DNA of 9,178 nt from an uncultured archaeon (GTDB lineage Archaea; Iainarchaeota; Iainarchaeia; Iainarchaeales; 0-14-0-20-30-16): contig CAYZSS010000027.1 of the NCBI GenBank assembly GCA_964480435.1, positions 1 through 9,178 on the forward strand, read 5' to 3'. The notes under the pieces are model-generated. The model saw nothing but the letters and a program-made list of their open reading frames with translations, was not told the DNA's origin and did no database searches. The position numbers were made by a program, and so were the translations under genes. Each line of letters opens with the position of its first letter. The stretch's first letter is position 1. Of this stretch, positions 1-9,178 are shown in pieces.

Positions 1-7
1 TAAGACT

Positions 8-709
8 ATGTATGAATCACATAAATTGAGCCAAAATAATAACTGGTGGTTTCAGGGTCGTAAAGATATAGTTGAATCGTTATTAGATAAGCAATTAAAA
101 AATAAAAAAAAACTAAAAATATTAGAAATCGGGTCTGGCTACGGGGTAATGGCTCAATTACTAAAAAAGTATGGCTCTGTTGAATGTATAGAACCATATC
201 CTGATGCTACAAAACACATAAAGAATAAGTTAAAACTTAAGGTGCATACTTGTACATTTGATGAGTTTAAAACAAATAATAAATATGATGTAATCGCGTT
301 ATTTGATGTTTTAGAACACATGAAAGAAGATAAAAAAGCAATAAAAAGAATATTGTCTTTGCTAACAAAAAATGGGGCTTTAGTCATGTCGGTTCCTGCG
401 TATAAATTTCTTTGGAGTGCGCATGATGATATAAATAACCATTTTAGAAGGTATACTAAAAAAGGGCTAAAATCTCTTTTGGCAGAACAATTTATTATAA
501 AAAAATTAACATATTTCAATACTTTTTTGTTTCCTTTGGCAATCTTGGATAAGCTGATAATGTCAAAAAATAAAAAAACTCAGGGCTTAAATCAAAAACC
601 GTGGATAAATAATATTCTTTACAGTATTTTTAGAACAGAAAGAAAAACATTAAAATACCTGTCATTCCCTTTTGGGGTGAGTTTATTTGTTTTTGCTAAA
701 AGAATTTAA
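8..709 (+). CDS. Class I SAM-dependent methyltransferase
   Basis: The 233-aa ORF starts at ATG 8, just after an in-window TAA (1-3). It has motif I ILEIGSGYG (E/DxGxGxG), an acidic post-I residue (ECIEP), motif II YDVIALFDVLEHM and motif III NGALVMSVP. The N-terminal WWFQGR segment is typical of methyltransferases encoded in glycan clusters. Confidence 0.8.
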   Translation: MYESHKLSQNNNWWFQGRKDIVESLLDKQLKNKKKLKILEIGSGYGVMAQLLKKYGSVECIEPYPDATKHIKNKLKLKVHTCTFDEFKTNNKYDVIALFDVLEHMKEDKKAIKRILSLLTKNGALVMSVPAYKFLWSAHDDINNHFRRYTKKGLKSLLAEQFIIKKLTYFNTFLFPLAILDKLIMSKNKKTQGLNQKPWINNILYSIFRTERKTLKYLSFPFGVSLFVFAKRI

Positions 710-711
710 AA

Positions 712-724
712 ACATATAAAAAGG
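712..724 (+). promoter_or_regulatory. Candidate archaeal TATA-like box (ACATATAAAAAGG) upstream of the GT-C gene
   Basis: An A/T-rich TATA-like element lies about 40-50 nt upstream of ATG 765. It overlaps a 7-bp hairpin, AAAGGTA-TCT-TACCTTT (720-736). It sits too close to the TTG at 735 to serve that start, which favours ATG 765. Confidence 0.3.
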
Positions 725-764
725 TATCTTACCTTTGTATACTGTTGTTTGTTATAGTGGTTTG

Positions 765-2219
765 ATGAATAAGTTTATAGGCTCTTTTTTAAATTCTTGG
801 AACAAATATTGGTATTTTTATATTCTTGGTTTGGCAGTCTTATTTTTTTTAATATATTTTGTGTTTTACCTTAATTGGGGTTATGGCTGGGATGAGTCAG
901 TATATTTAGTGCATACGGATATCTTTTTAGGACGGCAATCAATCTTTAATGAACTTGCATTTCGGCCTATAACAATATCATTATTTATTATCCCTTTTTA
1001 TCTCATTTCTAAAAATATTGCATTTTTACATGTTGTTATGTTATTCTGTTTTTGTTTTGCAATGTTTTTGCTATTTGTGCTACTTAAAAAACTATTTAAT
1101 TCTAAAGTGGCCTCTGTGATGGTGGCGCTATTTTGTATTTCGCCACTTATTCTTTCAACTTGTCAATTTGTTTTGACTGATATATTTGTATTTGTATTTA
1201 TAATTCCTGCAATTTATTTTTCCTATCTATTTTATGATTCTAAAAAAAGCAAGTTTATTATTTTTGCTAGTATTTTATTTGCTTTGGCTTTTTTAACAAG
1301 ATTTCTTTGTGGCATTTTTATATTAGTTATTTTATTGGTAATTCTTTTAGATTTTAGATTTAAATGGCTGGATATAAAACTATTTTGTTATAGGGTATTT
1401 TTGTGCATAATTACTTTTGTGGTTATTATTTCCCCATATTTTATATTTGTAAAGTTGAGGTTTGGTGATTTTTTACATACTATTGTGGCAGGACGTTTAT
1501 TGGTGAATTTTTATGATGCTCCATGGTATGTGTATATAACTAATATTATTACTCTTTGGCCAGTTTTTTTGATTTTTGGGCTTGTGGGGGTATATTATTT
1601 GTATAAATCTAAATTTTTTATGGCCTTTAATGACAAACTTAAAAATTATAATTTGGAAAAATTTGTATTTGTTTTGTTTATAGTGTTTATCTTGCAGTTT
1701 ATTTATTTAGGAATTACTCCACACAAAGAACCAAGATATACAATTTCGTTAATTTTGCCTTTTTCAATTGTTGGGGCTTATGGCTGCTATAAATTCTTAG
1801 CTTTTTTAAAAGTTCAGTCGCAAAGAAAAATCGTACTATTAAAGAAGTTGTTGTTATTTTGTTTTGGATTAGCTATTGTTCTGGGGTCTGTTGTTTTTAT
1901 AACATTTTGTGTAAAATACCCCACTGATAATTTTAATGTTGGAATGAAGCCTATAGATTACTTACAAAATAATGATTTTAATGGCAAATTATATGTTAAT
2001 TCTGATGTGCCACAGTACTTTTATTTGTTTAATAATAATGAAGTAATAAATCTATATTATTATAATTTAAATAATTTGAATTATAAGGTTTTATTTGATG
2101 AGCAAGGAATTTTTGTTTATAACACCTATAACGTTATGGATTTAAATAATCTGCCAGTTACCTTGGTGCCGATTAAAGAAATTTTTCCCTATATTATATA
2201 TGATGTAAAAATAAATTAA
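765..2219 (+). CDS. GT-C fold integral-membrane glycosyltransferase (GT39/GT83-like, ArnT/PMT type)
   Basis: The polytopic, very hydrophobic ORF has more than 10 predicted TM segments. Its first extracytoplasmic loop carries WGYGWDESVY, the DExxY-type acidic motif of ArnT/PMT-family enzymes. The Asn/Tyr-rich soluble C-terminal domain is about 90 aa. The ORF track begins at a TTG (735); I prefer the first ATG (765, MNKFIGSF...). The stop is TAA at 2217-2219. Confidence 0.7.
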   Translation: MNKFIGSFLNSWNKYWYFYILGLAVLFFLIYFVFYLNWGYGWDESVYLVHTDIFLGRQSIFNELAFRPITISLFIIPFYLISKNIAFLHVVMLFCFCFAMFLLFVLLKKLFNSKVASVMVALFCISPLILSTCQFVLTDIFVFVFIIPAIYFSYLFYDSKKSKFIIFASILFALAFLTRFLCGIFILVILLVILLDFRFKWLDIKLFCYRVFLCIITFVVIISPYFIFVKLRFGDFLHTIVAGRLLVNFYDAPWYVYITNIITLWPVFLIFGLVGVYYLYKSKFFMAFNDKLKNYNLEKFVFVLFIVFILQFIYLGITPHKEPRYTISLILPFSIVGAYGCYKFLAFLKVQSQRKIVLLKKLLLFCFGLAIVLGSVVFITFCVKYPTDNFNVGMKPIDYLQNNDFNGKLYVNSDVPQYFYLFNNNEVINLYYYNLNNLNYKVLFDEQGIFVYNTYNVMDLNNLPVTLVPIKEIFPYIIYDVKIN

Positions 2220-2220
2220 T

Positions 2221-3573
2221 GTGTATTTTGCTGTGCTTTTTTGTTTAGGGGTTCATTTCCAAACAAATAAAAACCAATCTGTTCAAGAATATATACTTAC
2301 TAGTGATCCTATGCATTTAGATTATATTTTGTTATTTTCGGTTGGGCTTTTGCTTTTTTTTATGTTACTTTATTTTTTTGCCTATCTGGATGCAAGAGGT
2401 AGAAAAGATCCTAAGCCAAAAAAGTATCCGGGTATTTCTATTATTGTGCCTATTTGGAATGAAGAAGACACTATTAAAGAAACGCTTGGTTGTTTGGTTA
2501 ATATTAAGAAGAAATATGCGGGTGATTTTGAAGTAATTGTTGTGGATGATAATTCTACTGATAATAGTTATAGTCTTACAAAAGAACTGGCAAATAAATA
2601 TAAGTTTATTAAATTGGTTACTAAAAAAGGAAAGAAAGGAAAAGCGGAAAGTTTTAATGAAGCCACAAAAATTGCAAAGTATGAACTAGTGGCTTGTGTT
2701 GATGCGGATGCGTTCCCTGAAGAAAAGTCTTTGGAATATATTGTAGGTTATTTTGCTGATGAAAAAGTAGGGGCAGTGACAACAAAAATGGTTGTTAAAG
2801 ACCCAAAAAAGCTTGTAGAATGGTTTCAGCATATTGAATATCTTTTTTCAAACTTTTTGTTATCTGCTTATGGACACTTGGAATCTATTTATGTTACAAA
2901 AGGTCCTTTAAGTGTGTATAGAAAAAGGGTATTGAAAAAAATTGGAGGGTTTAAAGGAATAGATATAACCCCTACTGAGGATATGGAGATAACTTTTAGA
3001 ATTAGAAAAGCGGGCTATACTATAAAAAATTCAATTGATGCAAAAGTATCAACAAGAGTTATGCCTACTTGGAAAAAATTATTTTGGCAAAGAGTGAGAT
3101 GGAATAGGGGTTCATTAATTAATTTCACAAAGCATAGAGATATGATGTTTGATAGACAATATGGCTTTTTTTCTATGGTGATGATGCCAATAATTACAAT
3201 AACAATAAGTATGCTTGCTATTGTCATTTATTATTTAATATTTAATTTAATTAATATCTTGGTTAATTTTTTTGTTAAGATGTATTGGTATGCTTATTTG
3301 AAAATAATTCCTAATCCTTTTATTGCATTACAAAGGTATTTTGAAATTAATTTTGCATATGTTGTATCTTATTTAATAGTTATCATCGCCTTTGCAGGAT
3401 TGGTGTGGATAATTACATATGCTGTTGGGTTTTATGAAAGCAAGGAAAAGTTAAAAATAAAACATATAATTATATTGATATTAACGCCCATAATATATAC
3501 TCCTGCACAAATAATATTTTGGGTTTCTGCAATTATTTTGCAGTTGACTAAATATAAATCTAGGTGGAGATAA
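2221..3573 (+). CDS. Family 2 glycosyltransferase with processive-synthase signature (PgaC/IcaA/NodC/CesA-like)
   Basis: An N-terminal TM is followed by YPGISIIVPIWNEEDTI, VVDDNSTD, the DxD motif ACVDADA, TEDME and QRVRW (nt 3088-3102), then about 4 C-terminal TM helices. The start is uncertain. GTG 2221 lies 1 nt after the upstream stop. ATG 2311 (MHLDY...) is preceded by GTGATC, which matches the AGGAGGTGATC Shine-Dalgarno (SD) complement, and by a TATA-like AATATATAC. Confidence 0.85.
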   Translation: MYFAVLFCLGVHFQTNKNQSVQEYILTSDPMHLDYILLFSVGLLLFFMLLYFFAYLDARGRKDPKPKKYPGISIIVPIWNEEDTIKETLGCLVNIKKKYAGDFEVIVVDDNSTDNSYSLTKELANKYKFIKLVTKKGKKGKAESFNEATKIAKYELVACVDADAFPEEKSLEYIVGYFADEKVGAVTTKMVVKDPKKLVEWFQHIEYLFSNFLLSAYGHLESIYVTKGPLSVYRKRVLKKIGGFKGIDITPTEDMEITFRIRKAGYTIKNSIDAKVSTRVMPTWKKLFWQRVRWNRGSLINFTKHRDMMFDRQYGFFSMVMMPIITITISMLAIVIYYLIFNLINILVNFFVKMYWYAYLKIIPNPFIALQRYFEINFAYVVSYLIVIIAFAGLVWIITYAVGFYESKEKLKIKHIIILILTPIIYTPAQIIFWVSAIILQLTKYKSRWR

Positions 3574-3574
3574 C

Positions 3575-4249
3575 ATGAATGATTCAAATAAAAAACTTTT
3601 GTTTAAGGCTTTGTCGGCTACTCTGGCTATAATGTTTTTATCTTTACTTTTTGCTAATTTAATTTATGATTGGAAAAAATCCAATATGGACGCGGACATT
3701 TTAGAGATTTATAATAAGAGCCTAGATTTAAAGATTACAAATAATTTTTTTGATTCTGTGTCTGTTGATAATAACTCTTGTGATTTAATAGAAACACAAC
3801 TTACTGGTGTTGCGGATCTTTTGTATGATATTGGAAAAAAAGTAAATCTTGCTTCAGAAGATAAATCAAATGTAAGTGATTTAATAGCATTGCAAAAACA
3901 ATATGTTTATAATAATCTAGAATTGTGGTTAAGACTAAGAAAAGAAAATAGTCTTTGTCCACAATATAGAAGAAATTACATTATGTATTTATATCCTTAT
4001 AATTGTAATGAATGTGCCCCTTTAGAAACAGCAATACGTGATGCTAAAGATAAATATGGGGATGAATTGTGGATTTTTAGTATTCCTAAGGAAATAAATA
4101 TAAAATCCGTAGATGCAATTGTGGATTATTATGGTGTTAATTATATCCCTGCTGTGATTATAAATGATAAAGTAATTTATGAGCAAGACATAATTAATAA
4201 TCTTGATATGTATATGTTTGACTATAATGGTGAAGGAACAATAGAATAA
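3575..4249 (+). CDS. Membrane-anchored extracytoplasmic thioredoxin-fold protein (CxxC = CNEC)
   Basis: The SD sequence GGTGGAG lies 7 nt upstream, and the ATG is 1 nt after the GT2 stop. An N-terminal signal-anchor (LLFKALSATLAIMFLSLLFANLI) is followed by a helical linker. The C-terminal ~90 aa follow thioredoxin topology: beta strand YIMYLY, then C144-N-E-C147 (nt 4004-4015), helix APLETAIRDAKDKYG, strand LWIFSIP, helix VDAIVDYYGV, and a putative cis-Pro I-P192-AVII (nt 4148-4150) before KVIYE. There are two further Cys residues (69, 128). The CDS itself is confident; the fold call rests on pattern only. Confidence 0.55.
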   Translation: MNDSNKKLLFKALSATLAIMFLSLLFANLIYDWKKSNMDADILEIYNKSLDLKITNNFFDSVSVDNNSCDLIETQLTGVADLLYDIGKKVNLASEDKSNVSDLIALQKQYVYNNLELWLRLRKENSLCPQYRRNYIMYLYPYNCNECAPLETAIRDAKDKYGDELWIFSIPKEINIKSVDAIVDYYGVNYIPAVIINDKVIYEQDIINNLDMYMFDYNGEGTIE

Positions 4250-4322
4250 TATATAAAAATATCCATCCCATAATTCAAAAGAATTCTTCTTTTTGTAACT
4301 AAGAAGTATTTTGCCTTTTCAA

Positions 4323-4352
4323 TAAGCCAATTTGCTTTTAGCAAATTGCTTA
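4323..4352. other. Imperfect 12-bp hairpin in the intergenic region (function unknown)
   Basis: TAAG-(C bulge)-CAATTTGC / TTTTA loop / GCAAATTG-CTTA. The 8-bp core is a perfect inverted repeat. It lies 74 nt downstream of the 4249 stop, and no T-tract follows it directly. Confidence 0.4.
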
Positions 4353-4464
4353 AGGACCTAAAGAAGCTTTTGTTAATGCAAAAGGTTCTTTTTGTTTCTA
4401 AAAAATCTAGAATGAATATCCCAAACCTTTAGTTTGTGGATATGGTCTGTTTTTGGCAGACTGT

Positions 4465-4484
4465 GCCTTTTTTTCTAAAAAGGC
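4465..4484. repeat. Palindrome GCCTTTTT-TTCT-AAAAAGGC (copy 1 of a T-run/A-run hairpin family)
   Basis: A perfect 8-bp inverted repeat with a 4-nt spacer ends 4 nt before the tRNA 5' end. Related copies lie at 4654-4670 and 4724-4738, and the core TTTCTAAAAA also occurs at 4395-4405. Confidence 0.6.
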
Positions 4485-4488
4485 TAGG

Positions 4489-4621
4489 GCCAAGGTAGCT
4501 CAGTTGGTTGGAGCGCCAGACTCATAACGTTTAGTTATGAATGATGAGTATCTTCTAGGTACGGTGATTTTCCATGTCGTGAGACATCTGGAGGTCGGGA
4601 GTCCAAGTCTCCCCCTTGGCA
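4489..4621 (+). tRNA. tRNA-Met: Intron-containing tRNA with anticodon CAU (elongator tRNA-Met most likely; tRNA-Ile2 not excluded)
   Basis: The cloverleaf was folded by hand. Acceptor stem: GCCAAGG (4489-4495) pairs with CCTTGGC (4614-4620). Discriminator is A4621 and no CCA is encoded. U8 and A9 are present. D stem: GCTC/GAGC, with the D loop AGTTGGTTG. Anticodon stem: CCAGA (4516-4520) pairs with TCTGG (4587-4591). The anticodon CAT is at 4523-4525. The variable loop is AGGTC. T stem: GGGAG/CTCCC. The mature length is 74 nt once the 59-nt intron is removed. It is not an initiator, because it has G1:C72 and lacks the three G:C pairs in the anticodon stem. Confidence 0.9.
4527..4585 (+). other. 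Archaeal-type tRNA intron (59 nt) at canonical position 37/38 with a BHB splice motif
   Basis: The central 4-bp helix pairs C32-U33-C34-A35 (4521-4524) with UGAG (4580-4583). The 5' bulge is U36-A37|A (4525-4527). The 3' bulge is A-C|A38 (4584-4586). The outer helix is only 2 bp (C4528:G4579, G4529:C4578). Both cut sites fall after the second bulge nucleotide, as expected for the archaeal splicing endonuclease. Confidence 0.8.
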
Positions 4622-4625
4622 TAAA

Positions 4626-4645
4626 GGGGCTTTATGCCCCATTTT
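4626..4645 (+). terminator. GC hairpin plus T-tract just downstream of the tRNA (candidate terminator)
   Basis: GGGGC-TTTAT-GCCCC is followed by ATTTT. A GC-only stem stands out in this AT-rich sequence, and oligo-T tracts are archaeal termination signals. Confidence 0.4.
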
Positions 4646-4653
4646 CGCAACTT

Positions 4654-4670
4654 GCCTTTTTCTAAAAGGC
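4654..4670. repeat. Palindrome GCCTTTT-TCT-AAAAGGC (copy 2)
   Basis: A perfect 7-bp inverted repeat with the same motif as 4465-4484. Confidence 0.6.
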
Positions 4671-4693
4671 AGGGGCTTCATGCCCCTTATTTC
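4671..4693 (+). terminator. Second GC hairpin plus T-rich tail (duplicate of 4626-4645)
   Basis: AGGGGC-TTCAT-GCCCCT forms a 6-bp stem and is followed by TATTTC. Confidence 0.35.
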
Positions 4694-4723
4694 AAAATGG
4701 GTATTTGTACATTTTGCAACTTA

Positions 4724-4738
4724 TCTTTTTTTAAAAGA
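4724..4738. repeat. Degenerate palindrome TCTTTT-TTT-AAAAGA (copy 3)
   Basis: A 6-bp inverted repeat occupies the same position in tandem unit 2 as 4654-4670 does in unit 1. Confidence 0.45.
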
Positions 4739-4741
4739 CAG

Positions 4742-4770
4742 CAAGTTCCCCCCTTGGCATCTATTTTTTT
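4742..4770 (+). repeat. Partial duplicate of the tRNA 3' end (CAAGT..CCCCCTTGGCAT) followed by a T7 tract
   Basis: CCCCCTTGGCAT at 4749-4760 is identical to 4611-4622, which covers the end of the T stem, the 3' acceptor strand, the discriminator and one more nucleotide. The similarity extends upstream through CAAGT (4742-4746 vs 4604-4608), giving 17 of 19 matches over CAAGT..TTGGCAT. TTTTTTT at 4764-4770 follows. No T-arm 5' strand lies upstream, so this is not a functional tRNA. Confidence 0.7.
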
Positions 4771-4797
4771 ATAGAAAACCCCCCCACAACCGTAAGC

Positions 4798-4824
4798 TAT
4801 TTAAATTATAAAATTGTATATATA
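4798..4824 (+). promoter_or_regulatory. Candidate TATA elements for the surface-protein/ABC operon
   Basis: TATTTAAATTATAAAA (4798-4813) would place a transcription start near 4830, giving a short leader that contains the GGGGG SD. TATATATA (4817-4824) would place the start near ATG 4845, giving a leaderless transcript. The sequence alone cannot decide between them. Confidence 0.35.
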
Positions 4825-4844
4825 TGACGTTTGGGGGTTATCTT

Positions 4845-6056
4845 ATGAAAAAAATCTTTATTTTATTATTTTTATTACTTATTGCTTCTTTTGGATTCGC
4901 ACAATCAACAAATTTTGCATATATTTTGAATATGGATTCTACTTCTGTTTATCCTGATACTATCTATCCTAATAGTGAAGTAAGTATGAATATTACTCTT
5001 TCTAATGTATCTTCCTTATTGGATGCAACGGATGTGCAGGTTAGTTTGATACCTAATAGCAATGATTTTGAGCTAATTATAAGTATGGATAACTTGGCAG
5101 TTATAAAGGCAAATCAAACAGGAAACTTTGCATTGAGGTTTAAAGTGAAGAACACTGTTAAAGGTGGTTATTATACAATTCCAATAAAAATAGATTATTT
5201 GCGTGATGGTGTTGATAAATTTACAATAGATACTCAAACAACAATTAATGTAACAAATTATGATAAATTAAATATGGTATTAACTGAATATCCTTTGGAT
5301 AAAAAATATTTAGATGAAAAAGTGGAAATAAAAGGGTATGTAAAAAATGAAGGGAATAATACTCTAAAAGGAATAAAAATTGCAGCTGATTTTGGAACAA
5401 ATAAATTAATTAATTTGGATGAAATGACAAAATTTATAGGGGATTTGAATCCTCAAGAACAAAAAGAATTTACTTTTACTTTTTTAATATCAAAAAATGC
5501 AGATCCCACTCTATTTTCTATTGATCTGAATGCCTACGCTGTTGGATCTATTGGGGATTTGGAGAAAGTATCTTTTGTTGTTGAAGACGCTCCTTCTTTG
5601 ATTGTGTCGTCCATAGACAAATCATATAGTAATGGAGCTACTGATCTAAAACAAGACGGTGATTTTTCTTTGTCTGTACAACTGGAAAATATTTCTAAAT
5701 CAACAGTAAAATCAGTAATGATGAAGTTATTAGATAATAAACTTGTTGAAGGAACAAATATCGCATATGTTGGATCACTAGCACCTGATGATTCAAGTTC
5801 AGGTATATTTGATTTACATGCTTTTAGTAATGCAGAGGTTGGGCCACAATCAGTAATGGTGGAAGTATCTTTTTTGGACCAATATGATAAAGAATACAGC
5901 TTTACAAAAGAAATACCTTTATTTGTAAAAAGTAAAGATGCTTCTTATGGCTGGGTTTTATTCTTAATAATTATTATTGGTGGTGGATTAGGAGGATATT
6001 TTTACTACAAAAATAAAGGAAAGAAAAAAGCAGTAAAATCTTTAAAAGGTAATTAA
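4845..6056 (+). CDS. Secreted, C-terminally membrane-anchored protein with three CARDB/COG1361-like beta-sandwich repeats
   Basis: I prefer ATG 4845 (MKKIFILLFLLLIASFGFA signal peptide, with GGGGGT 7 nt upstream) over the ORF-track ATG 4824. Three units of roughly 105-120 aa (about nt 4914-5258, 5259-5582 and 5583-5939) repeat the same strand pattern. Examples are SEVSMNITLSNVS..DVQVSL, EKVEIKGYVKNEGNNTLKGIKIAADF and GDFSLSVQLENISKSTVKSVMMKLLD. A C-terminal TM, WVLFLIIIIGGGLGGYFYY (about nt 5949-6008), is followed by a KNKGKKK tail. The protein has no Cys, no lipobox and no PGF-CTERM motif. Confidence 0.7.
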   Translation: MKKIFILLFLLLIASFGFAQSTNFAYILNMDSTSVYPDTIYPNSEVSMNITLSNVSSLLDATDVQVSLIPNSNDFELIISMDNLAVIKANQTGNFALRFKVKNTVKGGYYTIPIKIDYLRDGVDKFTIDTQTTINVTNYDKLNMVLTEYPLDKKYLDEKVEIKGYVKNEGNNTLKGIKIAADFGTNKLINLDEMTKFIGDLNPQEQKEFTFTFLISKNADPTLFSIDLNAYAVGSIGDLEKVSFVVEDAPSLIVSSIDKSYSNGATDLKQDGDFSLSVQLENISKSTVKSVMMKLLDNKLVEGTNIAYVGSLAPDDSSSGIFDLHAFSNAEVGPQSVMVEVSFLDQYDKEYSFTKEIPLFVKSKDASYGWVLFLIIIIGGGLGGYFYYKNKGKKKAVKSLKGN

Positions 6057-6057
6057 G

Positions 6058-7206
6058 ATGCGAAATTTAATTAAGGTTGCATTCCTTAATATTTTTCGAA
6101 GGAAAAAGCGAACTGCTTTGGCTTTGCTTGGAATAATTGTTGGGATTGCATCGCTAATAATTTTAGTCTCCATTGTGGATGGCCTTTATCAGGATTCCAC
6201 AAAGACCTTGGGAAAATTACAAGGCGTAACTGTGTACAAAGCAGATGCTTTGGCCCCATTTGCCAGTGAGATGGATTTAAGTTATAAGTCTAAGCTTGAA
6301 AGTATTCAAGGGGTAAAAGAGGCAATACCTGAAATATTACAAATTATTGGTACTGTGGATAACCAAAAAGTAAGTTATACTGGTCCCCAAAATAGCTTAT
6401 CTTTGGTGGGTTTAAATCCTGATAATTATGGTGATCTAATTTATAATTCAGTAAAAGAAAATCTTGTTTCTGGGCAATTATTAAAATCTTCTGATAAAGA
6501 TTATGTTCTAATTTCTAAAAAGGTTTCAGAGGATTATAAAAAATCTATTGGTTCAAGAATAAAACTTGATGCAAAAGAGTATAAAGTAAAAGGTATTTTT
6601 GAGTCAGGTACTAGCTCTCTGGATAGGCAAATTCTAACAACTTTGGATGGAGCTAGGTTGGGGTATGAAATTGATTCTAGTTTTGTTAATTTATTTAATG
6701 TTGTTACCGTAAATCCCTCTGATTCTGATGCTGCAGCTAAGAAAATAGAATTTAAATACGAGGAACTTAAGGCTGTTGGTCAGCAGGAAAGACTTGAAGC
6801 AGTGGGTTCTTTTCTTGATAATTTAAGATATTTAGTGATACTGGTAACACTTATTGCTGCCATAATTGCTGGCTTAGGGGTAATAAATACAATGCTTATG
6901 TCAGTAATGGAAAGAACAAAAGAGATTGGTACTCTGAGGGCTGTTGGCTGGACAAGAGCAAATGTAATTTATTCTGTTATATTTGAATCTGGAATTATTG
7001 GTGCCACTGGTGGAATATTAGGGATTATCTTCGGGGTACTGGGGAGTTATGCTTTTTCATTAGGCTTTGGCTTAACTACGGCAGTATCATTTTTTTTAAT
7101 ATTTGAATGTTTTTTGTTTGCACTTATATTAGGTATTTTTGGCGGAATCTATCCTGCAATAGTGGCATCTAGAATGGTACCTGTTGAAGCATTGAGGGGT
7201 AACTAG
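6058..7206 (+). CDS. MacB/FtsX-family (type VII) ABC permease, paralogue 1
   Basis: The ATG lies 1 nt after the upstream stop. N-terminal FLNIFRRKKRT plus TM1 is followed by an extracytoplasmic domain of about 220 aa (MacB_PCD-like), then 3 TM helices. The FtsX hallmark block INTMLMSVMERTKEIGTLRAVGW is present, and the C-terminus reads GGIYPAIVASRMVPVEALRG. Confidence 0.9.
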   Translation: MRNLIKVAFLNIFRRKKRTALALLGIIVGIASLIILVSIVDGLYQDSTKTLGKLQGVTVYKADALAPFASEMDLSYKSKLESIQGVKEAIPEILQIIGTVDNQKVSYTGPQNSLSLVGLNPDNYGDLIYNSVKENLVSGQLLKSSDKDYVLISKKVSEDYKKSIGSRIKLDAKEYKVKGIFESGTSSLDRQILTTLDGARLGYEIDSSFVNLFNVVTVNPSDSDAAAKKIEFKYEELKAVGQQERLEAVGSFLDNLRYLVILVTLIAAIIAGLGVINTMLMSVMERTKEIGTLRAVGWTRANVIYSVIFESGIIGATGGILGIIFGVLGSYAFSLGFGLTTAVSFFLIFECFLFALILGIFGGIYPAIVASRMVPVEALRGN

Positions 7207-7207
7207 C

Positions 7208-8353
7208 ATGTATGCCTTAATTAAATCCGCATTTTTAAATATTTTTAGAAGAAAGAGCAGAAGCATATTAACTTTTTTAGGCATTGCAATAGGAATGGCT
7301 TTGCTTGTGGTTCTGATCTCTTTTGTAAATGGTATTAATGCGGAAGCCCAAGGAAGCATAGGAAAAATGCAGGGCATAATCGTGTCTCAAGAATCAGCGA
7401 TGGACCAGGTTTTTAGTTCTCTTGATGAGTCATATGAATTCAAATTGAAAAAAATTCATGGAGTAAAAGATGTTGTTCCAGAATATTTTTATTTTGTTAC
7501 TGAAATTCAAGATAAACCTTTAACTACCTCTATATTGGATATGCCTTATATTTATGCAATAAATCCAGGACAATTTGAAAATAGTAGTTATAGTGCATTT
7601 ATTGATAATATGTATAAAGGAAGGGCAGTAAGGTCTGGAGATAATGGCGTAGTAATGATCTCAAAGTCTTTGTCTGAAAAATATTTGAAAAGTGTTGGAG
7701 ATAGCATAAAAATTGGAAATGCAAAATTTGATGTTATTGGTATATATGAAGTTAATTCTTCATTTTCTGTAAATGCAATAATTATGCCATTAATGGATTT
7801 TAAAGAAAATTATAATTATACTAAAGGCAAAGTAAATTCTTTTTATATTGTTCTTGATGCCAGTGCAGATGCGTCTCAGGTGGTAAAAAATATAGAATTT
7901 AATTATGATAACTTGAAGGCTCAGGGGCAACAAGAAATGATGGAGCAAATAAATGGTTTGCTTCTGAATCTAACCTTAATTGCTTTGTTTATTTCTTTAA
8001 TTTCCGCATTGGTTGCTGCTATTGGAATAATTAATACGATGCTAATGTCAGTAATGGAGAGAACAAAAGAAATTGGTACTCTTAAGGCTGTGGGCTGGTC
8101 AAGAAAGAATATTATTTTTATGATAATACTTGAATCTGTGTTTTTAGGTATTTTTGGCAGTTTTTTTGGAGTTGTTTTTGGAATATTAATAAGTAGCGCG
8201 CTTTCTTCTTTAATTGGAATTCAAACTATTGTATCTGCTGGTTTAATTATTGAAGTATTTTTGTATGGTATTTTTATGGGCCTGCTGGGTGGAATTTACC
8301 CGGCAATAAAAGCATCAAAACTTGACCCTGTTGAAGCATTGAGAGATGAGTAA
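7208..8353 (+). CDS. MacB/FtsX-family (type VII) ABC permease, paralogue 2
   Basis: The ATG lies 1 nt after the upstream stop. The architecture matches 6058-7206 (FLNIFRRKSRS...INTMLMSVMERTKEIGTLKAVGW...GGIYPAIKASKLDPVEALR), but the extracytoplasmic domain is clearly diverged. Confidence 0.9.
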   Translation: MYALIKSAFLNIFRRKSRSILTFLGIAIGMALLVVLISFVNGINAEAQGSIGKMQGIIVSQESAMDQVFSSLDESYEFKLKKIHGVKDVVPEYFYFVTEIQDKPLTTSILDMPYIYAINPGQFENSSYSAFIDNMYKGRAVRSGDNGVVMISKSLSEKYLKSVGDSIKIGNAKFDVIGIYEVNSSFSVNAIIMPLMDFKENYNYTKGKVNSFYIVLDASADASQVVKNIEFNYDNLKAQGQQEMMEQINGLLLNLTLIALFISLISALVAAIGIINTMLMSVMERTKEIGTLKAVGWSRKNIIFMIILESVFLGIFGSFFGVVFGILISSALSSLIGIQTIVSAGLIIEVFLYGIFMGLLGGIYPAIKASKLDPVEALRDE

Positions 8354-9041
8354 TATGGAAGAATTTATAATAAAAGTAAAAGATGTAGTAAAAACTTACA
8401 TAATGGGTGAAACAACAGTAAATGCCCTTAATGGTGTTAGTCTGGATATAAAAAAGGGAGAGATAGTAATGATTTTGGGCCCATCAGGAAGTGGAAAATC
8501 TACTTTGCTACATCTTCTTGGTGCTTTGGATCACCCTACTTCTGGACAAGTATACATAAAAGGAAAATTAATTTCTGACCTGGATGATTTTAGCCTAGCA
8601 GTTTTTAGAAGATATTACTTGGGCTTTGTATTTCAATCTTTTAATCTAATACCTACTCTTAATGTTTTAGAAAATGTTCTTATTCCCACTATCCCAGATG
8701 GTTCTGATTCAAGTAAAAGAAAAAGGGCTATTGATCTTTTGAATATAGTTGGGTTGTCCCATAGATTGGTGCATAAGCCTTCAGAATTGTCTGGCGGAGA
8801 GAGGCAGAGGGTAAGTATTGCAAGATCTTTAATTAATGACCCTGAGATAATATTTGCAGATGAACCTACAGGTAATTTAGACACCAAAACAGGGCAAAGC
8901 ATTATTGACCTTATTTTAAAGCTTAGAAAGGAAGAAAAAAAGACTTTTGTGATTGTTACCCATGATCCATCTTTAACTAAATATGCTGATAAAATTTTCT
9001 ATATTCGGGATGGGAAAATTAGCAATGCAAAAGGGGTATAA
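8346..9041 (+). CDS. ABC transporter ATP-binding protein, MacB/LolD (COG1136-like) type
   Basis: Motifs present: Walker A GPSGSGKST (from nt 8478), Q-loop FVFQSFNL, signature LSGGERQRV, Walker B IIFADEPTGNLD and H-loop VTHD. The start is either ATG 8346 (8-nt overlap with the permease) or ATG 8355 (1 nt after its stop). Confidence 0.93.
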   Translation: MSNMEEFIIKVKDVVKTYIMGETTVNALNGVSLDIKKGEIVMILGPSGSGKSTLLHLLGALDHPTSGQVYIKGKLISDLDDFSLAVFRRYYLGFVFQSFNLIPTLNVLENVLIPTIPDGSDSSKRKRAIDLLNIVGLSHRLVHKPSELSGGERQRVSIARSLINDPEIIFADEPTGNLDTKTGQSIIDLILKLRKEEKKTFVIVTHDPSLTKYADKIFYIRDGKISNAKGV

Positions 9042-9058
9042 TCACGCAGTAACCTAAA

Positions 9059-9065
9059 TCTTTTT
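9059..9065 (+). terminator. Oligo-T tract (TCTTTTT) downstream of the ABC operon
   Basis: This is the first T-run after the 9041 stop, and archaeal termination uses oligo-T. The evidence is weak in such AT-rich DNA. Confidence 0.25.
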
Positions 9066-9116
9066 AATAACTATATGCTTTATATATATCAGTAGTTTAG
9101 GTAAAGGTGAAAGCAA

Positions 9117-9178
9117 ATGATATACGTAATCGGGGCAGATTTTGCAGGATTAAGATTTGCAAATTATCTGTCTGACCT
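9117..9178 (+). CDS. 5' end of an ORF running off the window (MIYVIGADFAGLRFANYLSD...), possibly a dinucleotide-binding (Rossmann) protein
   Basis: ATG 9117 is preceded by AGGTGA (9105-9110), and a TATA-like CTTTATATATATC lies at 9078-9090. The N-terminal beta-strand plus G-x-x-x-x-G (VIGADFAG) resembles an FAD/NAD(P)-binding N-terminus. Only 20 codons are visible. Confidence 0.3.
   Translation, partial: MIYVIGADFAGLRFANYLSD

Follow-up and report, generated by a model that had tools for sequence, protein, structure and literature searches.

A four-gene unit in an archaeal genome fragment

Here we describe a four-gene unit in a 9,178-nucleotide (nt) stretch of DNA from an uncultured archaeon of the Iainarchaeota (contig CAYZSS010000027.1, positions 1 to 9,178 of the forward strand; the whole stretch is called the window below), in which the gene for a membrane-anchored surface protein precedes the genes of an ATP-binding cassette (ABC) transporter, and we weigh whether that protein may be a dedicated part of the transporter. 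All four genes lie on the + strand. The ORF of gene 1 (4845–6056) encodes the surface protein (B; 403 amino acids (aa)), genes 2 (6058–7206; P1, 382 aa) and 3 (7208–8353; P2, 381 aa) encode paralogous permeases of the MacB/FtsX type, and gene 4 (8346–9041; A) encodes an ABC ATPase of 231 aa, or of 228 aa if translation starts at 8355. An earlier, sequence-only reading of this DNA had described the genes as tightly packed, and the ORFs and junction sequences match that description: one nucleotide separates gene 1 from gene 2 (TAA at 6054–6056, g, ATG at 6058) and gene 2 from gene 3 (TAG at 7204–7206, c, ATG at 7208), and at the gene 3/gene 4 junction (ATGAGTAATATG) the TAA at 8351–8353 is either overlapped by the next gene (ATG at 8346; 8-nt overlap) or separated from it by a single nucleotide (ATG at 8355). 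An alternative start for gene 1 exists at 4824; the start at 4845 is the likelier of the two, because an equivalent MKK begins all homologues and a GGGGG run is located 7 nt ahead of this start. Reading the flanks suggests a TATA-like element (TTTAAATTATAAAA; 4800–4813, +) approximately 30–45 nt upstream of the gene 1 start as the putative archaeal promoter of the unit, and an oligo-T tract (CTTTTT; 9060–9065, +), 19 nt past the gene 4 stop, as a possible archaeal terminator.

A type VII ABC module

Judged by their sequences, genes 2–4 are members of the type VII ABC (MacB/FtsX-fold) superfamily, each defining feature tested having been found. The domains previously predicted for them were confirmed by Pfam: MacB_PCD (PF12704; 2e-19 and 71 bits in P1, 4e-25 and 90 bits in P2) and FtsX (PF02687; 4e-19 and 69 bits in P1, 1e-22 and 80 bits in P2), all above cutoffs, in the permeases, and ABC_tran (1.4e-34, 120 bits) in gene 4. 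P1 has four transmembrane (TM) helices and an extracytoplasmic domain of ~210 aa; it is 42% identical to P2 over 380 aa (BLASTP), and P2 in turn aligns near full length to MacB (5nik_J, residues 12–379) and LolC (7arh_C, residues 19–380). The ATPase carries Walker A (GPSGSGKST), signature (LSGGERQR), Walker B (IIFADEPT) and H-loop (VTHD) motifs. Its best solved-structure match is MJ0796 (1.7e-69), with Spr0694, LolD, YbbA and MacB also among the best matches, and its best family is LolD, at a score below the cutoff (TIGR02211, 260.5 versus 307.75 bits).

The arrangement of two permeases and one ATPase is shared by the window and two related loci (L001 and L015); elsewhere there is a single permease, or the order is B-P-A-P or B-A-P-P. 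The closest sister lineages (45–52% identity) have one permease, which groups with P1, and a divergently transcribed ATPase. In a neighbour-joining tree of 30 permeases, to be taken as indicative only, the first- and second-position permeases of the B-P-A-P modules form separate clades, distinct from the P1/P2 split, which suggests that the permease was duplicated at least twice, or lost in some lineages. Two distant modules encode an ABC ATPase of ~390 aa versus the usual ~230 aa (L046, 4653–5837; L011, 7347–8513); the extension of the L046 protein matches FilR1_middle, the middle domain of a transcription regulator, and these long ATPases may be fusions to a regulatory domain.

A repetitive beta-sandwich protein with a C-terminal anchor

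For the product of gene 1, the sequence-only reading had proposed a signal peptide, three CARDB-like repeats and a C-terminal TM anchor with a basic tail, an architecture borne out by Pfam, AlphaFold2 (AF2) and hhalign. The Pfam CARDB match itself is marginal (25.7 bits versus a cutoff of 22.7; residues 153–218); among distant relatives, 10 of 10 match CARDB at 1e-7 to 1e-16, with matches also to DUF11 and NPCBM_assoc. The AF2 model (15 homologues; pLDDT 87) has a signal helix at residues 2–16, three all-beta domains (~28–136, 142–247 and 252–362) and a TM helix at residues 369–400, followed by a lysine-rich tail. The three domains are mutually homologous (hhalign probability 99.2–99.4%, E 1e-19 to 1e-22) and, by this profile comparison, are true internal repeats. 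On the + strand of the window, the predicted signal peptide (MKKIFILLFLLLIASFGFA, followed by QS; a helix in the AF2 model, with the hydrophobic N-terminus kept in homologues) occupies 4845–4904, the membrane-distal beta-sandwich D1 4914–5258, D2, with the segment that matches CARDB, 5259–5591, the membrane-proximal D3 5592–5939, and the TM helix (YGWVLFLIIIIGGGLGGYFYY) with its basic cytoplasmic tail (KNKGKKKAVKSLKGN) 5955–6053.

Conservation is unevenly distributed along the protein. Across 46 diverse family members, mean pairwise identity is 0.34 in D3 versus 0.23 in each of D1 and D2, the invariant residues are concentrated in D3, and two D3 signatures (FSLSVQL[ED]NIG..AK and Y[VI]GxI[DE]xDD[ST]GxA[IV]FDL) recur; in the C-terminal region, Y385 and K393 are conserved among homologues. 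Such a distribution would be expected if the base of B contacts the permease. Longer relatives differ by extra distal beta-sandwich repeats only, giving four to seven domains, and a base that is conserved, combined with a distal stalk that varies and can be lengthened, fits docking on a membrane partner with outward projection.

How B is held at the surface can be narrowed further. Gene 1 matched no PGF-CTERM or other sorting-signal model in NCBIfam, its C-terminus (...GGGLGGYFYYKNKGKKK) lacks the PGF motif, and we found no lipobox; with no sorting motif, B would be expected to stay in the membrane as an integral type I protein. A reading of B as an archaeosortase-processed surface protein was therefore rejected, PGF-CTERM or a related motif being absent. 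The protein has six N-x-S/T sequons. Elsewhere in the family, three giant proteins (P0018, 6288 aa; P0076, 5108 aa; P0130, 6050 aa) contain 23–43 copies of the B-type beta-sandwich repeat. Four other relatives (P0074, P0117, P0072 and P0060) match TRAP_beta (PF05753), two of them exceeding the whole-protein cutoff via short partial matches only. The eukaryotic protein behind this model, translocon-associated protein beta, is likewise a beta-sandwich protein of membrane type I that is anchored C-terminally, and these matches probably reflect a common fold, not a specific relationship.

Linkage to ABC genes across archaea

A word-indexed protein search with gene 1 returned 17 close relatives, to which a broad alignment added few more; a HMMER profile scan extended the family to 4520 cluster representatives at E<=1e-3, of which 126 reach E<=1e-30, and many are proteins of ~400 aa with end-to-end matches. 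The nearest relatives are in metagenome-assembled genomes (MAGs) of 'Candidatus ainarchaeum/Iainarchaeum'. Genomic contexts were collected from exact-protein look-ups, a genome scan (4 loci, narrow alignment) and a metagenome scan, and homologues of B, P and A were mapped in these loci by tblastn.

A MacB-type permease or its ATPase directly follows B in 31 of the 33 non-redundant loci with readable downstream DNA. Five gene orders account for this linkage: B-P-P-A (the window, L001 and L015); B-P with A divergent on the opposite strand ahead of B (L003, L007, L008, L016, L018 and the P0011 contig); B-P-A (L005, L011, L026, L033 and L041); B-P-A-P (L010, L022, L023, L024, L028, L029 and L038); and B-A-P(-P) (L035, L039, L040 and L046). 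Among linked loci scored with the window sequence, gene 1 identity falls to ~23–28%, and neighbours other than B, P and A are unrelated from lineage to lineage. Together, the five orders and the changing neighbours indicate that the B–ABC linkage has outlived repeated rearrangement. Loss of synteny in related genomes, which the sequence-only reading had named as a refuting condition, was not observed, and the conserved succession of B and ABC genes supports the earlier proposal of a functional tie between the beta-sandwich protein and the ABC machine.

The two exceptions are related to one another. In L030, a reverse-strand agmatinase-like gene (2849–3721, −) stands between B and P, and in L032 polyamine genes are inserted (2456–4127, −), after which the contig ends. 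Judged by eye from the translations, the genes inserted at these loci encode agmatinase-like, agmatine deiminase-like and nitrilase-family amidase proteins.

Linkage also extends to distant family members and beyond DPANN. Eight distant members were taken from the profile hits, not from the scan for the D3 signature; six of the eight have MacB-type ABC genes, one has an MMPL gene and one has neither. One of those linked to ABC genes is from a Hydrothermarchaeales MAG, outside DPANN, and a 651-aa family member is annotated in Archaeoglobus, so the B family is not restricted to DPANN. A tblastn search of annotated plasmids with the permease gave bacterial matches only. PadR regulators precede some of the ABC modules, MazE-like regulators also occur beside some modules, and many DPANN modules have no adjacent regulator. 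The 742-kb contig behind L028 has archaeal neighbours (archaeal-type class-I lysyl-tRNA synthetase (LysRS), IdsA and KaiC-like proteins). Directly after the L028 module lies a 615-aa RelA/SpoT homologue (9180–11027, −; TIGR00691 472 bits versus a cutoff of 499); (p)ppGpp enzymes are unusual in archaea.

A parallel in haloarchaea

A tblastn search of annotated plasmids for B recovered distant homologues on haloarchaeal megaplasmids, with 'COG1361 S-layer family protein' as their annotation. The COG1361 gene is immediately upstream of an MMPL/RND transporter gene in Haloferax alexandrinus, Haloarcula marismortui, Haloplanus and Salinibaculum (L042–L045), and a metagenomic relative of 646 aa (L013) is likewise paired with MMPL. 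At their C-terminus, the haloarchaeal proteins have a single TM helix followed by a tail that reads RRK or RRQN, which is the topology of the gene 1 product. The presence of B-like proteins upstream of both ABC and MMPL/RND genes places one protein class in the adaptor slot of two unrelated pump types, and MacB-type and MMPL/RND pumps share one property, namely large extracytoplasmic domains. A divergent TetR gene adjoins the COG1361 gene upstream in three of the four genera, and an unclassified helix-turn-helix gene does so in Haloplanus; regulators beside several modules, ABC and MMPL alike, fit regulated export. Another TetR gene and another COG1361 gene lie near the Haloarcula pair. A COG1361 protein of Haloferax alexandrinus, which may or may not be the product of the MMPL-linked gene, is reported to be induced by 0.5 mM silver (PMC10694973).

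Comparison with known systems

The sequence-only reading had called the ABC machine LolCDE-like and heterodimeric. Its observation of a two-permease, one-ATPase layout holds for the window, and 'LolCDE-like' is a description of gene layout only. The likeness to LolCDE and LolDF lies in two paralogous permeases with one ATPase gene, the permeases aligning to LolC and LolE over their full length, and LolCDE is likewise a type VII mechanotransmitter acting at the outer face of the membrane. Membership of LolCDE was rejected because all Lol equivalog scores are below cutoff (lolCE TIGR02212, 78 and 106 versus 362 bits; LolC, 75 versus 473; LolE, 58 versus 439). The sister lineages have a single permease, and the duplication seen here appears independent of the LolC/LolE split and is probably recurrent. 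To our knowledge, archaea have no outer membrane of the Lol type and no LolA/LolB pathway. Membership of FtsEX was rejected on similar grounds (best FtsX model, 46 versus 250 bits; FtsE TIGR02673, 196.5 versus 264.85 bits).

Bacterial counterparts are the monoderm pumps Spr0693-0694-0695 of Streptococcus pneumoniae (5xu1) and YknXYZ of Bacillus subtilis, which likewise combine a separate nucleotide-binding domain (NBD) protein with a 4-TM MacB_PCD/FtsX permease; Spr0695 (5xu1_M, 1.9e-20) and Spr0694 (5xu1_A, 2.2e-63) are among the best solved-structure matches. Monoderm MacB pumps work without an outer membrane, and their accessory gene is first in the operon and encodes a protein with a one-TM anchor that projects into the wall zone (PMC5985334). 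There are also differences: Spr0693 and YknX have an N-terminal anchor and an HlyD/membrane-fusion protein (MFP) architecture with lipoyl, beta-barrel and hairpin domains, whereas B has three immunoglobulin (Ig)-like domains, and the window differs from these pumps in its archaeal host and its two paralogous permeases. Neither the ORFs of the window nor the genes called in related loci gave an HlyD/MFP domain match, in agreement with the earlier claim that a classical membrane-fusion adaptor is absent, and a MacAB-TolC-type pump was rejected because no gene for such an adaptor is present.

Among archaeal proteins, MJ0796/MJ0797 of Methanocaldococcus jannaschii offers a comparison for the ATPase, MJ0796 falling in the same NBD subfamily as gene 4; it has been studied only as an isolated ATPase, serving as a model NBD (PMC8277102). 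The mycobacterial MmpS–MmpL pairs resemble the unit in another way: MmpS5, a 'periplasmic adapter protein' with a single TM helix, is encoded in an operon with MmpL5 and needed for its assembly and function (PMC12122801). Here, too, a single-TM accessory protein is encoded directly upstream of a pump with large extracytoplasmic domains, as in the haloarchaeal COG1361–MMPL pairs; however, MmpS is small, N-terminally anchored and without sequence relation to B, and the pump in the window is driven by ABC ATPase rather than by proton motive force, so that B resembles MmpS by operon position and presumed role only. Finally, gene 1 passes the CARDB cutoff and its distant homologues are annotated COG1361, which connects B to the COG1361/CARDB/DUF11 'S-layer family'. 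That annotation implies a structural role, and COG1361 has been treated as an S-layer component (PMC10694973, PMC10354927), whereas the C-terminally anchored subfamily is tied here to exporters.

Interpretation and rival explanations

We lean, with modest confidence, towards B being a dedicated accessory subunit of an archaeal type VII ABC complex. In favour of this reading are the tight gene packing, the linkage kept through five gene orders, the co-divergence of B, P and A, the conservation of D3, the COG1361 proteins in the adaptor position of haloarchaeal MMPL/RND pumps, and the lack of a match to a sorting signal by which B could be released. In MacB, LolCDE and FtsEX, the ATPase dimer moves the TM1/TM2 stalk helices and thereby opens and closes the extracytoplasmic domains (mechanotransmission). 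For the system in the window, we infer the B–permease contact, the stoichiometry, the direction of transport and the substrate as follows. P1 and P2, paired as permeases, would form one envelope machine with the single ATPase, presumably present in two copies. In it, ATP binding and hydrolysis in the ATPase dimer would be relayed along the extended helices TM1 and TM2 to the permeases' extracytoplasmic domains. B would dock on the permease pair via its TM helix and the conserved D3, and D2 and D1 would reach outward towards the S-layer, by ~8–12 nm if the three domains are extended. There they could receive, guide or shield material that the permeases expel at the membrane's outer face, for example a peptide, a lipid or an amphipathic toxin, or block its re-entry into the membrane. 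Adaptors of MacB-type pumps include MacA, Spr0693 and YknX, and thus extend to monoderms (PMC5985334); the reliance of bacterial MacB-type and MmpL pumps on co-encoded anchored adaptors provides a precedent for B as an adaptor-like protein. A broader proposal, that C-terminally anchored COG1361/CARDB proteins are a general class of archaeal pump adaptors for both MacB-type ABC and MMPL/RND pumps, bridging the membrane to the S-layer, we regard as doubtful and advance only tentatively. If true, this class would be to archaea what tripartite efflux assemblies are to bacteria, with an unrelated fold, and many proteins annotated as 'S-layer family' would be transporter subunits.

Several observations weigh against B as an accessory subunit. 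The metagenome loci were picked via the D3 signature, so that one subfamily was sampled, though with no bias towards ABC linkage, and one long relative (P0074) has no transporter nearby. The pairwise distances of B, P and A correlate strongly across 16 loci (r(B,P)=0.87; partial r(B,P|A)=0.59), suggesting that the three travelled together, but this co-divergence is weak evidence alone because vertical co-inheritance of neighbours gives the same pattern. A Rosetta-stone search among ten long relatives found no fusion of B to FtsX. Known adaptors are anchored at the N-terminus and B at the C-terminus; B shows no similarity to HlyD/MFP adaptors or MmpS in Pfam and NCBIfam; and a fold search gave generic Ig-like matches only. 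A profile of gene 1 matched no PDB sequence.

The conserved linkage on which we lean fits equally well with a B that forms no stable complex and instead cooperates with the pump as a surface-anchored capture or immunity protein, or as a stress sensor. Lantibiotic immunity provides an example, in that LanI lipoproteins cooperate with LanFEG. PadR, TetR and MazE-like regulators beside some modules are in line with such a role, and the variable repeat number (3 to 7 or more) and fast-evolving D1 and D2 are reminiscent of ligand-binding surface proteins. We nevertheless hold this account to be unlikely: the most conserved domain is the membrane-proximal one and not the distal, presumably ligand-facing ones, there is one B gene per ABC or RND module, usually as the first gene, and the many regulator-free modules in small DPANN genomes look housekeeping-like rather than like inducible immunity. 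Less probable again, and in our view quite unlikely, is that B is the cargo, extracted, flipped out or positioned by the type VII machine, for example towards the S-layer in a Lol-like manner. LolCDE does extract membrane-anchored proteins, LolD is the best family match of the ATPase, and B is glycoprotein-like, with its sequons and its proximity to glycosylation genes. However, the module does not belong to Lol, and the full hydrophobic TM helix with a poly-lysine tail and neither lipobox nor sorting motif has the character of a stable stop-transfer anchor. B-like proteins moreover pair with haloarchaeal MMPL/RND pumps, which are not protein extractors, and a dedicated ATP-driven machine encoded 1:1 with a single cargo would be unusual.

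An FtsEX-like arrangement, in which the ABC module would signal to B and B, as a scaffold, would control an enzyme of division or envelope remodelling (compare EnvC or PcsB), has the common fold and the weak FtsX family matches of the permeases in its favour; as outlined in two reports, FtsEX combines that fold with an extracytoplasmic partner that binds the domain of FtsX (PMC7668044, PMC11627006). We think it very unlikely, given FtsX and FtsE scores far below cutoff, a B that is all-beta and not a coiled coil, neighbourhoods with no conserved hydrolase gene and a paralogous linkage to RND pumps that points to export. That B and the ABC genes have no common function and are simply envelope genes expressed together seems highly improbable. 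Adjacency alone is not proof, and the window lies in an envelope and glycosylation gene cluster; yet the adjacency recurs in 31 of 33 loci, in five orders and across archaeal phyla, while the other neighbours change.

Surrounding DNA

Upstream of the unit, a tRNA(CAU) gene with a 61-nt intron at the canonical position lies at 4489–4621 on the + strand (Rfam 54.1 bits, E 8e-11; missed by ARAGORN). An intron-containing tRNA is a direct marker of archaeal origin and, together with the gene 1 relatives in Iainarchaeum MAGs, bears out the archaeal (DPANN) origin given in the sequence-only reading. The 3′ end of the tRNA (CAAGTCTCCCCCTTGGCAT, 4604–4622) is repeated 138 nt downstream (4742–4760), with 17 of 19 bases matching, and this repeat may be what is left of an att site after a mobile element integrated or was excised. 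Several GCCTTTTTYCTAAAAAGGC-like hairpin copies and two AGGGGCTTyATGCCCC hairpins are also present in the 600-nt intergenic region; the hairpins lie near 4463–4487, 4651–4670 and 4718–4747, with repeats at 4625–4645 and 4671–4691.

Further upstream, an envelope glycosylation cluster (8–4249, +) encodes a SAM (S-adenosylmethionine) methyltransferase, a 494-aa PMT_2/ArnT-like GT-C enzyme, a PgaC/IcaA-like GT2 enzyme and a 224-aa membrane-anchored thioredoxin-like protein; the pair of GT2 and thioredoxin-like genes is also upstream of the module in L001. Downstream, an ORF at 9118–9178 (+) runs off the window end; it starts MIYVIGADFAGLRFANYLSD and has a GxGxxG dinucleotide-binding N-terminus. 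Its counterpart in L001 is 364 aa long, has no Pfam match and precedes an LPG_synthase_TM gene and the gene of a MarR-type regulator.

Implications for archaeal envelope biology

What defines a type VII ABC system is the extracytoplasmic partner that it drives, be it MacA-TolC, LolA, EnvC/PcsB or TesA. In the full-text literature, outside which subscription papers mostly lie, we found no archaeal partner described for such systems and no CARDB/COG1361 partner for archaeal MacB-type or MMPL pumps, although a mention under an arCOG name is possible, and the earlier statement that no characterised system has this composition stands within that literature. A 2014 survey of archaeal 'dark matter' by Makarova places SalXY-like ABC genes beside other membrane proteins only (PMC4158269), and a 2018 review of the MacB family nowhere mentions archaea (PMC5985334). 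The new element is probably a fold-unrelated accessory protein that accompanies an otherwise known type VII ABC machine.

For archaeal type VII systems, a conserved partner of this kind would provide a first architecture that can be tested, and would suggest a route by which expelled compounds cross the archaeal pseudo-periplasm and S-layer. A large set of proteins now labelled 'COG1361 S-layer family' would also receive a new annotation. Because the COG1361–MMPL version is present in cultured Haloferax and Haloarcula, the general idea is directly testable, and Haloferax has established genetics. Retention of the unit in reduced-genome DPANN carriers hints at a core function in the archaeal envelope.

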